64,000 nucleotides of DNA from Candidatus Minusculum obligatum (GTDB lineage: Bacteria; Patescibacteriota; Minisyncoccia; Phycocordibacterales; Phycocordibacteraceae): contig CP174360.1 in assembly GCA_045401155.1 (NCBI GenBank), forward strand, positions 159,035-223,034. The letters are read 5' to 3'. The notes beneath the pieces were generated by a model. It searched no databases. It saw nothing but the letters and a program-made list of their open reading frames with translations, and had not been told where the DNA came from. The stretch's first letter is position 1. The number at the start of each line of letters is the position of its first letter. The position numbers and the translations under genes are program-made. This document shows positions 4,206 through 9,142 of this stretch, piece after piece.

Positions 4206-4541
4206 ATGGAGCACTCATTTGAGTTATTTTTTGCCCTTTGTATAGGGCATGCCGTCGTCGATTACGGACTGAGCACCGAGTATGTTGCCCTCGGCAAATC
4301 ACACAAGAACCCCGTGGGTAAAGGTGTGTGGCCGTGGGTTCTGCTCGCACACTCGCTCATGCATGCCGGCGTAGTGTATACCATCACCGGGTACTGGATC
4401 CTGGCGGTGGGAGAGCTTCTGCTGCATGCGATCACGGATTACCTGAAGTCCGACGGCAAAATCAACTATCACGTTGATCAATCAATCCACTATCTCACAA
4501 AAGGTCTCTGGGTCTACATGACCCTCTATGTCCTCTCGTGA
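4206..4541 (+). CDS. small His-rich membrane protein (DUF3307-like); GC-rich orphan cassette C1
   Basis: 111 aa with 3-4 TM helices and conserved His/Asp motifs (GHAVVDY, LAHSLMHAG, LLHAITDYL). Upstream 'ggaaagggggtgcaacATG' is a ribosome-binding site. Codon usage is GC3-rich (ctg/gcc/ggc), unlike neighbouring genes. Confidence 0.5.
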   Translation: MEHSFELFFALCIGHAVVDYGLSTEYVALGKSHKNPVGKGVWPWVLLAHSLMHAGVVYTITGYWILAVGELLLHAITDYLKSDGKINYHVDQSIHYLTKGLWVYMTLYVLS

Positions 4542-4608
4542 AAACCAGATGGAGGGAGCGGAGCAGCAATGCTTCGCTTTTCTTTTTAATAATGCTACGC
4601 TCAAGGGG

Positions 4609-6030
4609 ATGGCAAATCGCTACATAACAACTACACTTCCGTACGTAAACGCAGATCCACATGTGGGATTTGGACTTGAAATCGTACAAGCAGACTTCCT
4701 CGCTCGGTACTGGAGACTAACTGGAGAAGATGTATTTTTCACAACCGGAACAGATGAGCACGGACAAAAAATCTTCCAAAAAGCACAAGAAGAGGGGAAA
4801 GACGTACAAGCGTACGTAGATCATTACGCCAATGAGTTTAAAAAGCTAAAGGAGGCACTCAATCTTTCAAATGACGCATTTATCCGCACAACAGATGAAA
4901 AGCACATTAATGCTGCACAAGAAATCTGGAAGCGCTGCGAAGCAAATGGAGATATTTATAAAAAGAAGTACAAGGGACTCTACTGTGTAGGAGATGAGGC
5001 ATTTCTAAAAGAAAATGAATTGGTAGATGGAAAGTGTCCAAACCATCCAACAATGGATCCAGTTGAAATTGAAGAAGAAAACTATTTCTTTAAGTTTAGT
5101 AATTACCAAGACAAGCTACTGAAGTATCTTGAGAATGAAGAGGTAATCATTCCAGACTGGCGTCGTAAAGAGGCAATTGAGTTTGTAAAAAATGGTCTTG
5201 AAGACTTTTCTATCTCTCGTGAAAAAGAACGGCTCTCTTGGGGCGTGCCCGTACCTGGAGATGACTCACAAGTAATGTACGTATGGTTTGATGCGCTTAC
5301 CAACTACATCTCGACACTAGATTGGCCAGAAGGAGAACACTTTAAAAAGTACTGGGAGAATGCGCATGTACTACAAGTAGCAGGGAAGGATCAGGTACGA
5401 TTCCAATCACTTATCTTCCAAGCGATGCTCCTGTCAGCTAATGTAAAGAATACTGATCAAGTCTTTTACCATGGCTTCATTACCTCAAATGGACAGAAGA
5501 TGAGTAAGTCTATTGGAAACGTAATCTCTCCATATGAGCTTATCGAAAAATACGGAACCGATGCTACGCGGTACCTGCTTCTTCGACATGTGCATCCTGT
5601 AGATGATTCAGACATTACGTGGGAGAAACTAGATGAGTGGTATACCGCTAACTTGGTAAATGGAATTGGAAATCTAACCGCCCGCATCACCAAGCTTGCA
5701 GAAACACACCTAGAAGGGCCAATTGAAAAACCAGACGCAGAAACATTCCCAAGTGAGTACACATCTGCAATCGATAACTTTAAATTTAATGAAGCACTCG
5801 ATTACATCTTTAAACGAGTGGGAGATCTCGATAAGCGAATCACAGATGAAGAGCCATTTAAGGTAGTAAAGACAGATCTAGAAAAGGGAAGAGAGTTAAT
5901 TAAGGAATATATGGAGGAACTTTATGTAATTGGACGACTGCTCAATCCAGTTATGCCTGAAAGCTCAAATATAATTAAAGAGTCAGTACTCAAGAACACA
6001 AAACCAGAAGGACTCTTCCAACGCCTTTAG
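4609..6030 (+). CDS. metG: methionine--tRNA ligase
   Basis: PYVNADPHVGF (HIGH-type) and KMSKSIGN (KMSKS) motifs. Likely start is MANRYITT at 4609; the track ORF starts upstream at 4528. Confidence 0.9.
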   Translation: MANRYITTTLPYVNADPHVGFGLEIVQADFLARYWRLTGEDVFFTTGTDEHGQKIFQKAQEEGKDVQAYVDHYANEFKKLKEALNLSNDAFIRTTDEKHINAAQEIWKRCEANGDIYKKKYKGLYCVGDEAFLKENELVDGKCPNHPTMDPVEIEEENYFFKFSNYQDKLLKYLENEEVIIPDWRRKEAIEFVKNGLEDFSISREKERLSWGVPVPGDDSQVMYVWFDALTNYISTLDWPEGEHFKKYWENAHVLQVAGKDQVRFQSLIFQAMLLSANVKNTDQVFYHGFITSNGQKMSKSIGNVISPYELIEKYGTDATRYLLLRHVHPVDDSDITWEKLDEWYTANLVNGIGNLTARITKLAETHLEGPIEKPDAETFPSEYTSAIDNFKFNEALDYIFKRVGDLDKRITDEEPFKVVKTDLEKGRELIKEYMEELYVIGRLLNPVMPESSNIIKESVLKNTKPEGLFQRL

Positions 6031-6031
6031 T

Positions 6032-6136
6032 ATGCAAAACAAAACCACAATCATAATCCTTGTAGTACTCGCAATACTTTTTGCATGGATTGAACTATCT
6101 GTGGGACTTTTTAGTACTCCGTGGGCAGGGTCATAA
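6032..6136 (+). CDS. possible 34-aa single-TM micro-protein translationally coupled to metG
   Basis: ATG lies 2 nt after the metG stop and encodes MQNKTTIIILVVLAILFAWIELSVGLFSTPWAGS; a terminator hairpin follows. Confidence 0.25.
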   Translation: MQNKTTIIILVVLAILFAWIELSVGLFSTPWAGS

Positions 6137-6181
6137 TATGAAATAGAAGACCGCCTACGGAAGCGCTCTTCCATAGGCGGT

Positions 6182-6478
6182 TTAGGCGAAGGTGTACCCC
6201 TCCCATTGAACATCACCGCAATTTTTGCAGGTATGGGCCTTTACGTCGTTCATACATTCACCGCCGTGTCCCCACGTGTAGCCGCAGGTGTCACATGTGT
6301 GAAAGTGATGTTCCAAAAATGCTTGATTGTGTTCGTGATGCTCGCGAAGCATCTGTTCGAACGTCTCAATCATCTCTTGAACTTGCCGCTCTCTTTGCCG
6401 GCGCAGGTAACGCCTTCGTACATATGAGAGAAGTAGGCAAAGAGCGCCGCCAAGTAGCGCTGAAAACAGCAGTCCCAT
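6182..6478 (-). CDS. small membrane-anchored protein with C-terminal Cys/His-rich zinc-ribbon-like motif (CDTCGYTWGHGGEC...HTCKNCGD); GC-rich orphan cassette C2
   Basis: N-terminal TM helix plus CxxC...CxxC. The minus-strand leader has the ribosome-binding site 'gaagagggacacaccATG', a TTGACA-18-TATAGT promoter and a downstream hairpin at 6150-6180. Confidence 0.45.
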   Translation of the reverse strand: MGLLFSALLGGALCLLLSYVRRRYLRRQRERQVQEMIETFEQMLREHHEHNQAFLEHHFHTCDTCGYTWGHGGECMNDVKAHTCKNCGDVQWEGYTFA

Positions 6479-6579
6479 GGTGTGTCCCTCTTCAGATTGA
6501 AAGTTCTATAGGCTCTTTTAACTATACAACATAAACTAATCAAGTGTCAATTTATACTTGATTATGCTACAGTCCACCT

Positions 6580-7350
6580 ATGAAATACATCGACACACAC
6601 TGCCATCTCCAATTTGACGCATACGATGAAGATCGAGAGGAAATCATCAGTCAAATGAAAGAAAACGACATCCATGCCATTACCGTGGGTGTAGATTTTA
6701 ATTCCTCAAAGCAAGCAATCGAACTTGCACAAAAACATAATCATATCTACGCAACGGTAGGAATGCACCCATGCTATGTGGCAAAAGAAGAATTTGATAA
6801 GGAAGCATTTCTAGAAATTACTAAAGACAATACTGTGGTTGCAATAGGAGAGTGCGGACTCGATTACTTCCGAGAAGAAGACAAAAACGTACAAAAACTC
6901 CAAAAAGAAGTATTCATACAGCAGGTAGAGATTGCACAGGAGCTTCAAAAACCCCTAATGATCCACGGACGCCCAAGCAAAGGAGCATACGATGCATATG
7001 AAGACATCATCAAAATCCTTAAAGACTACAACGTAACCGGAAATATTCACTTTTTCGTAGGAAGCAGTGAGATTCGGGATCAATTTGAAGAATTAGGATT
7101 TACAGTATCAGTAACAGGCGTAATCACCTTCACGGATGACTATAACGACATGGTAACGGCTGCAAAACAAGATTTTCTCCTCGCAGAGACTGATTCTCCA
7201 TATGTTGCGCCAAAACCACATAGGGGAGAGCGAAACTCAGCGTTAAACGTGGTGCACGTATACAAGAAAATAGCGGATCTTTGGGAAATGGAGGAGGAAG
7301 AAGCGCAAAAAATCCTCACGGCTAATACAAGGCGTATTTTTGGCCTATAG
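6580..7350 (+). CDS. tatD: TatD-family metal-dependent hydrolase/DNase
   Basis: MKYIDTHCHLQFDAYDEDREEI... and the TatD HxH, GECGLDY and ETDSPY motifs. Confidence 0.85.
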   Translation: MKYIDTHCHLQFDAYDEDREEIISQMKENDIHAITVGVDFNSSKQAIELAQKHNHIYATVGMHPCYVAKEEFDKEAFLEITKDNTVVAIGECGLDYFREEDKNVQKLQKEVFIQQVEIAQELQKPLMIHGRPSKGAYDAYEDIIKILKDYNVTGNIHFFVGSSEIRDQFEELGFTVSVTGVITFTDDYNDMVTAAKQDFLLAETDSPYVAPKPHRGERNSALNVVHVYKKIADLWEMEEEEAQKILTANTRRIFGL

Positions 7351-7854: not shown

Positions 7855-8292
7855 ATGTACATCAACAAGGCACTTATTTACGGAAACCTAACACGAGACC
7901 CTGAGGTAAAGGCACTTCCTTCAGGATCTCAGGTTGCATCATTCTCAGTTGCAACAAACCGAACCTACAAGGATCAGAACGGACAGCAGCAGGATGCAGT
8001 GGAGTACCACAACATCACTATGTTTGGCCGACAGGCTGAAGTTGCAGGTCAGTATCTAAAGAAAGGACGTCCTGTATTTATTGAGGGGCGCCTTCAGACT
8101 CGCAATTGGGAGAAAGATGGTGTAAAACACTATCGAACTGAAATTGTTGCAGACCGATTCCAATTTGGACCATCTGCACGAGGAGGAGAGGGAGCGCCTG
8201 CTGCAAACCCAGCAGATGAGCAGCCAGCTCCATCAGGAGATGCAATCCAGTACCCAGATGAAGACATTAATCCGGAAGATATTCCATTTTAA
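7855..8292 (+). CDS. ssb: single-stranded DNA-binding protein
   Basis: OB-fold signature (LIYGNLTRDPEVKALPSGSQVASFSVATNRTYKD) and the C-terminal acidic tail ending DIPF. Confidence 0.9.
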   Translation: MYINKALIYGNLTRDPEVKALPSGSQVASFSVATNRTYKDQNGQQQDAVEYHNITMFGRQAEVAGQYLKKGRPVFIEGRLQTRNWEKDGVKHYRTEIVADRFQFGPSARGGEGAPAANPADEQPAPSGDAIQYPDEDINPEDIPF

Positions 8293-8302
8293 TAATTGAG
8301 AT

Positions 8303-8503
8303 ATGGACGACGAGAAAAAGACAATGGATACACCACGATTTGTGGACTACAAGGATACAGACTACCTAAAGCAGTTTGTGAATCCACACGCACGTATCAA
8401 TAACCGACGACGTACACGAGTATCTGCACGCCGACAGCGAGAAATCACTCAAGCTATCAAGCGCGCACGATTCATGGCACTGATGCCGTACATCGCTCGA
8501 TAA
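8303..8503 (+). CDS. rpsR: 30S ribosomal protein S18
   Basis: NPHARINNRRRTRVSARRQREITQAIKRARFMALMPY. Confidence 0.9.
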   Translation: MDDEKKTMDTPRFVDYKDTDYLKQFVNPHARINNRRRTRVSARRQREITQAIKRARFMALMPYIAR

Positions 8504-8566: not shown

Positions 8567-8773
8567 TTAGGGGTAAAAATCAAGGCTGATCCCGCTGAAG
8601 TAAAAGTCACACACGTTGGTTTTGGGTGAGATAATCTTGTGCCCAACCAAAACAAACGGCATAACAACCAAAGCTGCAAGAATTGCAACAATGATAACCG
8701 CAACCATGAGGATGCCGATGCACAGCAGGAAAAAGTAGCCTATGGTTTTCAGAAGATCTACAAATAGCTTCAT
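8567..8773 (-). CDS. small hydrophobic membrane protein (about 68 aa)
   Basis: MKLFVDLLKTIGYFFLLCIGILMVAVIIVAILAALVVMPFVLVGH... preceded on the minus strand by the ribosome-binding site 'aaaggagtattctgATG'. A 13-bp hairpin (8530-8560) follows its stop. Confidence 0.35.
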   Translation of the reverse strand: MKLFVDLLKTIGYFFLLCIGILMVAVIIVAILAALVVMPFVLVGHKIISPKTNVCDFYFSGISLDFYP

Positions 8774-9142
8774 CAGAATACTCCTTTCCCAATTCAGAAG
8801 ATAATACAAATAAAAAATAAGCGCAATGCGCTTATAAGGTGTCTTGGAGATGAGGCTGTGCACGCAGCCTCATCTCCATATGTCTGGAAAGATATTCATC
8901 AGACTGACGATGGGAACATAACTCCACCGGGCTGGCTGAATCTTGTTGCAAGAGGCTCAAATGAGCAGTGGCGCCCCTCAGGGCGCCGCCTAGTACGCTG
9001 CTCCGACAAGATCTCTTTATTGAAGCGGGCGGAATAACTTCTTTAACTTGATGATTGCCGGAAATCATCAAGTTTTGACCTGAGACCAAACCGTCCCTGA
9101 CCAATGTGCGTACCAGGCTCTGCGAGAGAGTATATAGTAACT

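Follow-up and report, generated by a model that had tools for sequence, protein, structure and literature searches.

A predicted membrane-anchored, zinc-ribbon-like small protein encoded between metG and tatD in Candidatus Minusculum obligatum, with relatives mostly in uncultured phages and phage-like contigs

Introduction

What kind of gene could lie between two housekeeping genes of a candidate-phylum bacterium, antiparallel to both, and what could its product do there? The question is raised by a 98-amino-acid open reading frame (ORF) in a 64,000-nucleotide stretch of Candidatus Minusculum obligatum DNA (GenBank contig CP174360.1, positions 159,035–223,034; hereafter the window, in whose own numbering coordinates are given). 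The ORF, 6182–6478 on the minus strand, encodes the protein MGLLFSALLGGALCLLLSYVRRRYLRRQRERQVQEMIETFEQMLREHHEHNQAFLEHHFHTCDTCGYTWGHGGECMNDVKAHTCKNCGDVQWEGYTFA and a stop codon, exactly as quoted in an initial annotation made from the letters alone. It is flanked by metG (4528–6030, plus strand; Pfam tRNA-synt_1g, 7.5e-100) and tatD (6580–7350, plus strand; TatD_DNase, 6.9e-70). That annotation had taken the locus for a GC-rich orphan cassette carrying its own promoter, ribosome-binding site and terminator.

Judged by its homologues, a positional orthologue and its conserved signals, the gene is a real and self-contained accessory unit that is probably transcribed independently. As to its nature, we lean slightly towards an accessory gene acquired long ago from mobile elements, whose product would join an N-out/C-in membrane anchor and a stalk to a cytoplasmic zinc ribbon acting as a binding module.

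Results

A domain family outside the annotated libraries

An exhaustive phmmer search of 1.84 billion cluster representatives gave 95 matches at an expectation value (E) of 1e-3 or below (best, 3.4e-11). One of them (P0005) was a repeat artefact, and the 94 related clusters all align to residues about 55–96 only. A word-indexed search of 5.8 billion proteins with the window protein as query found no match, and further word-indexed protein searches found 7 and 6 matches only; because a word index cannot seed on such a short and variable domain, the family size is a lower bound of at least 94 clusters. The members share the signature H-x-H-x-C-x2-C-G-x2-W-x-H-x10-H-x-C-x2-C-G-x3-W, and its 35-residue length is identical in 74 of the 95 extracted domain sequences (query included). 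All ten key residues of H-x-H-x-C-x2-C-x3-W-x-H-x10-H-x-C-x2-C-x4-W occur in the window protein, at residues 58–92.

In the 95-sequence full-length alignment, H58, C62, C65, H71, H82, C84 and C87 are invariant, and H60, W69 and G88 are at least 90% conserved; in the ungapped domain sets, H58, H60, C62, C65, W69, H71, H82, C84, C87 and W92 are all invariant. C75, which belongs to the 'GGEC' of the motif as earlier parsed, is about 40% conserved in the domain alignment, and that parsing has to give way to a module of four Cys and four His. Read from the sequence, the module can be divided into two HxCxxCG half-sites (H60-C62-C65-G66 and H82-C84-C87-G88) with H58 and H71 in addition.

The annotated libraries hold little of this family. 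Against Pfam, the best matches of the window protein were NicO (E 0.0026; 17.6 bits against a cut-off of 27.7) and DUF2284 (0.009), and no significant match was obtained in NCBIfam, PADLOC (searched for defence systems) or a PDB sequence search. An exact look-up of the protein found no record, and a metagenome scan with the 98-amino-acid ORF found no close relative. The 95 alignment members, window protein included, gave only sub-threshold matches to generic zinc ribbons in Pfam, NCBIfam and PHROGs, among them Zn_ribbon_8 in 23 of 95, TIGR02605 in 25 of 95, HypA in 12 and HVO_2753 in 4–7; in PADLOC, members reached the zinc-ribbon part of Cas12f only below threshold. Where the sources name them at all, the members are called 'hypothetical protein', one cluster being auto-labelled 'DUF1610 family' (IMG). 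In the literature, the motif string led only to a CopB motif that is unrelated, and a topical search returned nothing on this family. The word orphan therefore fits the gene only with respect to annotated libraries and word-indexed searching, given the 94 related clusters and the positional orthologue described below. As far as these searches reach, the domain family appears to be undescribed, with members that are small soluble, membrane-anchored or exported proteins.

Hydrophobic segments were counted in the 95 domain sequences (window protein included): 27 have one at the N-terminal side, 10 at the C-terminal side, 1 at both, and 57 have none. Some of the N-terminal segments resemble signal peptides or N-in anchors, and judging from these sequences the domain is evidently in use on both sides of the membrane across the family. 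One subfamily (P0010, P0016, P0029, P0047, P0060, P0062, P0075, P0087 and P0092, with the viral loci L176, L178 and L179) combines a signal-peptide-like N-terminus with a C-terminal CPT or CPxGxCP motif, and its members look like exported versions of the domain.

Predicted architecture and candidate metal sites

Three parts can be distinguished in the window protein, all encoded on the minus strand. Residues 3–20 (6419–6472; LLFSALLGGALCLLLSYV) form the transmembrane anchor, with a Kyte-Doolittle 17-residue mean of 2.3, and RRRYLRRQRER comes next. Residues 21–56 (6311–6418) form a charged, helical stalk that is not conserved and whose sequence REHHEHNQAFLEHHFH is rich in His. Residues 57–98 (6185–6310) hold the HxHxCxxCGxxWxH-x10-HxCxxCGxxxW domain, delimited by the family alignments, the structure model and weak structural matches to zinc ribbons. 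Because the N-terminus is uncharged and seven Arg follow the hydrophobic segment, an N-out/C-in topology is predicted by the positive-inside rule, with the two-residue N-terminus facing outward.

AlphaFold2 (AF2) gave a predicted local distance difference test (pLDDT) score of 74.5 from the single sequence (C-terminus 46–72) and a mean of 95.6 with the family alignment. The latter model has one continuous helix at residues 2–56, spanning the transmembrane segment and the stalk with pLDDT above 90, and a small beta domain made of strands 58–61 and 68–71, the CxxC turns, of which there are two, and further short elements that reach residue 95. The transmembrane helix, His-rich helix and zinc ribbon proposed in the initial annotation are thus supported by the model; the His-rich linker is absent in the orthologue. 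Foldseek found no significant PDB or viral match, and its weak top matches were all zinc ribbons: the archaeal ribosome-bound small zinc protein, the MCM zinc finger, HVO_2753 (6ydh), HypA (5yy0, 3a44) and Trx2.

C62-x2-C65 and C84-x2-C87, which are invariant in 95 of 95 sequences, lie in modelled loops after strand 58–61 and around residues 83–90. These four Cys form two knuckles that most likely hold one structural zinc, as they do in every zinc ribbon. A second, more exposed metal site could be formed by H58 and H60 on strand 1, H71 on the strand paired with it and H82, which precedes the second knuckle by two residues. We give this site about an even chance. Without it, one could hardly account for the presence of four invariant His in addition to a full Cys4 site. 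In the inferred register, H58 and H60 share one face of strand 1 and H71 lies across from H58 on strand 2; the combination of HxH with a His on a neighbouring strand builds metal sites in carbonic anhydrase and cupins.

Several other assignments were tried and rejected. A C2H2 zinc finger calls for C-x2-4-C-x12-H-x3-5-H in a beta-beta-alpha fold, from which the spacing C65-x5-H71-x10-H82 departs, and PDB C2H2 profiles matched at E 0.0025–0.5 only. The cytochrome c-type CxxCH does not apply, as both knuckles read CxxCG. A precursor of a ribosomally synthesized and post-translationally modified peptide (RiPP) or a bacteriocin precursor was set aside, given a domain that folds as a ribbon and no modification or export genes nearby.

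A membrane-tethered domain predicted to face the cytoplasm also invites comparison with anti-sigma factors, in which case the protein would be a switch: a transcription factor would be kept at the membrane and set free once the site is oxidized or loses its metal. H58-x3-C62-x2-C65 (H58-FHT-C62-DT-C65) does fit the HxxxCxxC of zinc-binding anti-sigma (ZAS) factors as a pattern match only, and Cys/His sites are redox- and metal-sensitive in general. The likeness to ZAS factors such as RsrA and ChrR (zf-HC2), many of which are membrane-anchored, extends to the Cys/His zinc site. Yet neither the protein nor its family matches zf-HC2 (PF13490) in the Pfam listings, the prediction is a beta zinc ribbon instead of the helical ZAS domain, and the transmembrane helix precedes the zinc domain, the reverse of the order in ZAS proteins. 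Nor does a sigma factor gene adjoin, the neighbours being metG, orf34 (see below) and tatD, and we regard such a switch as decidedly improbable.

A positional orthologue and purifying selection on the domain

The best family match, P0001, is encoded in L086, a 44-kb metagenome contig (JGI 3300010430), between tatD and metG and antiparallel to both, and the gene order is the same as in the window. Amino-acid identities between L086 and the window (tblastn) are 91% for glyS, 80% for the AI-2E-family permease, 86% for metG, 68% for tatD (71% in a MAFFT pairwise alignment), 70% for rpsF, 86% for ssb, 86% for rpsR, 82% for efp and 87.5% for recA. For metG and tatD, the synonymous divergence (dS) is 1.3–1.6, with a ratio of nonsynonymous to synonymous divergence (dN/dS) of about 0.08–0.13 (metG: pS 0.61, NG86 dS about 1.3).

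The two small proteins are alignable in the domain only, with 62% identity over 45 residues. Both begin with a hydrophobic helix of diverged sequence, then a basic cluster, which reads RRRYLRRQRER in the window and RYRRFKK in L086, and the positive-inside rule gives N-out/C-in for the L086 protein likewise. P0001 lacks 25 stalk residues, among them most of the His-rich stretch, and is longer by 16 residues at its C-terminus. Within the domain, differences fall at 30 of about 110 nonsynonymous sites and at 20 of about 25 synonymous sites. The check proposed for the initial annotation, in which a dN/dS of about 1 would speak against coding, came out in favour of a coding gene: pN, the proportion of differing nonsynonymous sites, is 0.275, against 0.80 for the synonymous equivalent pS, which is saturated (Fisher p = 1.5e-6). 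From this comparison the domain appears to be under purifying selection.

Downstream of the orthologue, L086 encodes a 47-amino-acid CxxCxGxG protein at 8074–8217 on the plus strand, overlapping it by 17 nucleotides and matching Anti-TRAP (2.2e-06) and DnaJ_CXXCXGXG (3.8e-4), both below threshold. This protein may be the partner in a two-gene operon; the window has no counterpart of this DnaJ/Anti-TRAP-type gene.

Expression signals and gene layout

The coding sequence (98 amino acids and stop, 6182–6478, minus strand) is established by in-frame homologues, the positional orthologue and the selection on the domain; its ATG at 6478 is the earliest start codon past the upstream in-frame stop. 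The promoter proposed in the initial annotation is present on the same strand, with a −35 hexamer TTGACA at 6545–6550 and a −10 hexamer TATAGT at 6521–6526, separated by 18 nucleotides. It matches the consensus in 11 of 12 positions and is the sole promoter-like match in 5800–6900. By itself, such a match is not beyond chance: the 64-kb window has 2 sites of at least 11/12, and first-order Markov re-samplings have 1.7. The case for the promoter is made by its position, 43 nucleotides upstream of the ATG within a 101-bp intergenic region, and by the conservation of the 18-nucleotide spacing in L086. In the intergenic alignment of window and L086, TTGACA is identical and in the same register, TGTTGTAT(AGT/TTT) follows after the same spacer, so that L086 has TATTTT after the same TGTTG, and AGAGGGA stands before the ATG. 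The ribosome-binding site gaagaggga was likewise borne out as a Shine-Dalgarno-like element at 6485–6493 (minus strand, 6493 to 6485), 6 nucleotides before the ATG, where L086 has AGAGGGAGGG.

Directly 3′ of the stop codon lies a G+C-rich hairpin of −28.7 kcal/mol (z = −4.5; equalled by none of 200 shuffles). It had been described as a 12-bp hairpin at 6150–6180; the strong hairpin is there, with 14 pairs and a 4-nucleotide loop at 6150–6181. Its T-tract is weak (CTTCTATTTC). Since a 34-amino-acid transmembrane ORF (orf34, 6032–6136, plus strand), which bounds the unit, stands between metG and the hairpin, the hairpin separates two convergent genes and is shared with the metG-orf34 unit; it is a probable two-way terminator for the 98-amino-acid gene and orf34. 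The convergent junction of L086 has an equally strong hairpin with a T6 run, of a sequence unrelated to that of the window. In an Rfam search the hairpin alone scored, as ctRNA_pGA1 (26 bits against a gathering score of 45), alongside a His_leader match (E 0.76); both were taken as chance.

The antiparallel placement between metG and tatD was correctly described, while this conserved ORF had been overlooked. orf34 (MQNKTTIIILVVLAILFAWIELSVGLFSTPWAGS) begins 2 nucleotides past the metG stop and encodes a single membrane helix; it has no Pfam match. It is 68% identical to its L086 copy (8284–8391), with dN/dS 0.15, and is probably a true small-protein gene co-transcribed with metG.

On the other side of the gene, a palindrome with 14-nucleotide arms (6537–6564; TAATCAAGTGTCAA/TTTATACTTGATTA, 86% complementary) is centred beside the −35 box; it could be an operator and is not conserved in L086. 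The tatD gene (ATG 6580) has no Shine-Dalgarno sequence in region 6565–6579 (plus strand). An extended −10-like element upstream of it (TGCTACAGT in the window, TGCTACATT in L086) ends exactly 6 nucleotides before the ATG in both genomes, which suggests that the tatD mRNA is leaderless and transcribed divergently from the 101-bp spacer common with the small gene.

Base composition, codon use and the coding status of the gene

The ORF was rightly called GC-rich. Its G+C content (GC) is 0.508, against 0.431 ± 0.026 in the 38 long ORFs (at least 150 amino acids) of the window, and at third codon positions (GC3) it is 0.535 against 0.348 ± 0.044, which is +4.2 standard deviations. GC3 is also high in the L086 orthologue (0.474, against about 0.38–0.40 for its neighbours). 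Such a composition is compatible with a foreign origin before the split of the window and L086 genomes, and no proof of it. The codon log-likelihood per codon is −0.24, against 0.34 ± 0.14 for resident genes. Codon-usage scoring had no power to choose the reading frame, since one antisense frame scores −0.22, and the frame is settled by homology instead.

Codon usage that is poor for the genome, frames that are not separated and a promoter match that alone is no better than chance across the window are what a chance ORF or a decaying remnant would also present. The reading of the gene as non-functional is nevertheless refuted for practical purposes, and we find it barely credible, since 94 clusters are homologous to the product in frame and share its invariant ligand residues, the expression signals are kept in the positional orthologue, pN is well under pS in the domain, and the model has pLDDT 95.6.

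A permissive junction and the age of the gene

The window is Patescibacteria DNA of the Paceibacteria/Kaiserbacteria type. The wider flanks of the gene (glyS, the AI-2E-family permease, metG, tatD, rpsF, ssb, rpsR) follow an order conserved across Paceibacteria, and glyS-permease-metG-tatD-rpsF in particular is widely kept among relatives. The gap between metG and tatD is 120 bp or less in 34 of the 71 loci that have both genes in this order, and 264–2832 bp in the other 37, where it is filled with unrelated genes (hydrolases, Nudix, EamA-type transporters, kinases and unknowns). A hidden Markov model (HMM) of the domain was run on six-frame translations of 166 loci and the window (1.5 Mb). 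Among about 160 Paceibacteria metG loci it found the domain only in the window and L086; the remaining matches were the family-context loci L081–L085. The gene is missing in about 150 relatives that are more distant. Besides L086, the closest MetG sequences among the matches listed, from GTDB species representatives and JGI metagenomes, have 67–69% identity, with one partial match at 74%. Given gaps that are either closed or variably filled, and a domain confined, among these metG loci, to the window and L086, the junction is permissive and the gene is cargo of one narrow lineage.

The idea of an inserted cassette, as put forward in the initial annotation, holds in so far as the gene is lineage-specific extra DNA at a junction that is closed in many relatives; the insertion itself predates the split from L086. 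A recently inserted mobile gene cassette, integron-like or element-borne, would agree with a self-contained unit of atypical GC at a junction that varies among relatives. Against it, the gene has the same position in L086, at near-saturated synonymous divergence (metG pS 0.61, NG86 dS about 1.3), the locus has no flanking direct repeats, attC-like site or tRNA, the neighbouring genes include no integrase or transposase, and the window contains no further copies. This explanation is largely refuted, and we consider its chances very slim. A search of the locus likewise revealed no tRNA, flanking direct repeat, att-like site or recombinase at the insertion. Because the gene is shared with a genome at such divergence and lacks flanking repeats, tRNA and integrase, it appears to predate the split of the window and L086 genomes and not to be a recent insertion.

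Other junctions of the neighbourhood also differ between the two genomes. A gene for a 111-amino-acid membrane protein (4206–4541, plus strand; GC 0.518, GC3 0.652; sub-threshold DUF3307, E 5.9e-4) lies between the permease gene and metG in the window and is absent from L086, where an unrelated 100-amino-acid ORF on the opposite strand takes its place; this makes a second variable junction. The metG start listed at 4528 is probably over-extended, the true start being likely near 4609 (MANRYITT...). Between rpsR and efp, the window has a 98-amino-acid hydrophobic ORF (8567–8863, minus strand) without L086 homologue, and L086 has an unrelated 115-amino-acid ORF instead; by this comparison rpsR-efp appears as a third junction with lineage-specific small genes.

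Phage contexts of the family and the question of metal handling

A codon-level pattern of the motif (46 bits) matches 21 IMG/VR viral contigs, many of them 45–77 kb long, where by our own estimate about 1e-3 matches would be expected by chance. The products are mostly of 62–130 amino acids, two ORFs as called having 186 and 251, and all but one have no hydrophobic segment. A viral-contig scan with P0084 as the single query found no match.

Genomic contexts were looked up for six other family members. One-directional arrays of short ORFs contain a DEAD helicase (L083), a D5_N primase (L085), VapE (L192) or an inovirus-type Rep (the P0017 contigs, such as L191) together with the domain gene; L188 is a one-directional array of short unknown ORFs with no marker gene, and L081 is a cell-like context with RelA/SpoT and Nudix genes. 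In L187 the domain gene lies near an ATP-dependent DNA ligase. In two related phage lineages it stands beside genes for a CobS/MoxR-like AAA+ ATPase (phrog_249 'porphyrin biosynthesis', phrog_16448) and a vWA protein (phrog_33218), in L167/L169/L171 (L171 3468–5927) and in L180 (9675–12170); this linkage may be functional or merely inherited synteny. From these contexts, most of the family seems to reside in uncultured phages and in contigs of a phage-like or inovirus-like kind.

The same linkage bears on the main rival to a binding module, which is that the protein handles metal directly. It would then be a membrane-tethered buffer, sensor or metallochaperone for zinc, nickel or copper, whose His cluster and stalk exchange the ion with a transporter or client. 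The pair of CobS/MoxR-like AAA+ and vWA proteins is known from metal-chelatase systems, four invariant His stand alongside the Cys4 site, the stalk is His-rich, the weak best Pfam matches are metal proteins (NicO 0.0026, DUF2284 0.009, HypA in 12 members), and exported and thioredoxin-fused members exist. However, the sole orthologue has no His-rich stalk, every Pfam match is far under the cut-off, and no transporter or metalloenzyme gene adjoins in the window or L086. Furthermore, the CobS/vWA linkage comes from closely related phages in which it may be inherited synteny, and most phage members are plain 60–90-residue proteins in arrays of unknown genes. Metal handling is therefore a rather unlikely function in our judgement, although it deserves more weight than the other alternatives weighed so far.

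Discussion

An acquired, domesticated accessory gene with a cytoplasmic zinc ribbon remains the reading we somewhat favour, and it would imply the following course. The gene would have been acquired from the mobile-element pool by a common ancestor of the window genome and L086, would have landed at the metG-tatD junction, into which Paceibacteria often admit cargo, and would then have been kept under purifying selection. In the cell, the stalk (residues 21–56) would carry the C-terminal domain of 35–40 residues, about 36 helical residues from the inner membrane face, and the metal-loaded domain could there recruit or sequester a partner. The variable stalk, the gain or loss of the 47-amino-acid neighbour in L086 and the phage contexts point to an accessory role in conflict or regulation, not in core metabolism.

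Several observations weigh against this interpretation. The second, His-based site is inferred from strand register only, and the N-out/C-in topology rests on the positive-inside rule. Some members appear exported or C-out, and two (P0084 and P0087) are fused to thioredoxin folds, so that the domain is not tied to the cytoplasm and a role with a cytoplasmic partner may not hold family-wide. There is one orthologue only, so that the measure of selection comes from one pair of sequences, whose synonymous sites are saturated. A tblastn search of 50,697 sequenced phage records with the domain and with a family consensus found no member of the family. Finally, a GC3 that is high in the two orthologues although they diverged long ago does not have to mean foreign origin, as selection or amino-acid composition could also account for it.

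A more speculative possibility, which we would expect to be wrong, is that the 35-residue module is a hitherto unrecognised two-metal mini-domain, with the Cys4 zinc and an exposed site of three or four His, and that it serves phages and ultra-small Patescibacteria as a metal-dependent effector in soluble, anchored and secreted forms, for example by capturing metal or inhibiting a target in host or phage. In that case the gene in the window would represent a copy that was domesticated and tethered to the membrane.

Among known proteins, the closest comparison in fold is with the FmdB/CxxC_CxxC_SSSS family (TIGR02605, Zn_ribbon_8, PF09723) and the HVO_2753/DUF1610 zinc-finger proteins, which are very small, like the members here, and whose two CxxC(G) knuckles likewise sit on short beta hairpins at a distance of about 20 residues. 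For FmdB/TIGR02605, 23–25 of the 95 members match below threshold (best E 7e-5 to 3e-4), and the window protein does not match. Four His and two Trp, invariant and at fixed distances (HxHxC...WxH...HxC...W), set the present family apart from both groups, as does a membrane or signal segment in about 40% of its members. HypA is a nickel metallochaperone whose nickel site, which contains His, is separate from its Cys4 zinc ribbon. It shares the idea of a structural Cys4 zinc plus a second, His-based site, and gave weak Pfam matches in 12 members and weak Foldseek matches (5yy0, 3a44). It differs in that E reaches only about 1e-4 for single members, with no match for the window protein, which has no MHE N-terminus, is much smaller and has no hydrogenase or urease genes nearby.

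At the level of the gene, the unit resembles a phage moron. In the sense of Hendrix and Juhala, a moron is an autonomous promoter-gene-terminator unit of deviant composition between two prophage genes. The window unit likewise has its own promoter, ribosome-binding site and terminator in opposite orientation to its flanks, deviant GC and codon use, a small membrane product and relatives on phage contigs. In contrast to morons, it is flanked by housekeeping genes (metG, tatD, rpsF, ssb) and not by prophage genes, and it is old, being syntenic in L086.

The family defined here is new and compact, with ten invariant residues and a confident predicted fold, and Pfam, NCBIfam, annotated PHROGs and the PDB do not contain it. 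On sequence evidence, its signature of four Cys, four His and two Trp is unusual for zinc ribbons, and the family appears to be associated with mobile elements, the window copy being domesticated in one Paceibacteria lineage. Small proteins of candidate-phyla bacteria and of their phages are mostly unannotated, and this locus provides a clean and testable example. It also illustrates how such genomes gain genes: in a housekeeping order that is otherwise rigid, a few permissive junctions take up small accessory genes equipped with signals of their own. Should the His cluster prove to be a second metal site, the domain would be among the smallest natural two-metal domains, and would be useful for protein design and for phage-host metal biology. 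Beyond that, through this family a chromosome of Paceibacteria is connected with the pool of genes in uncultured phages.

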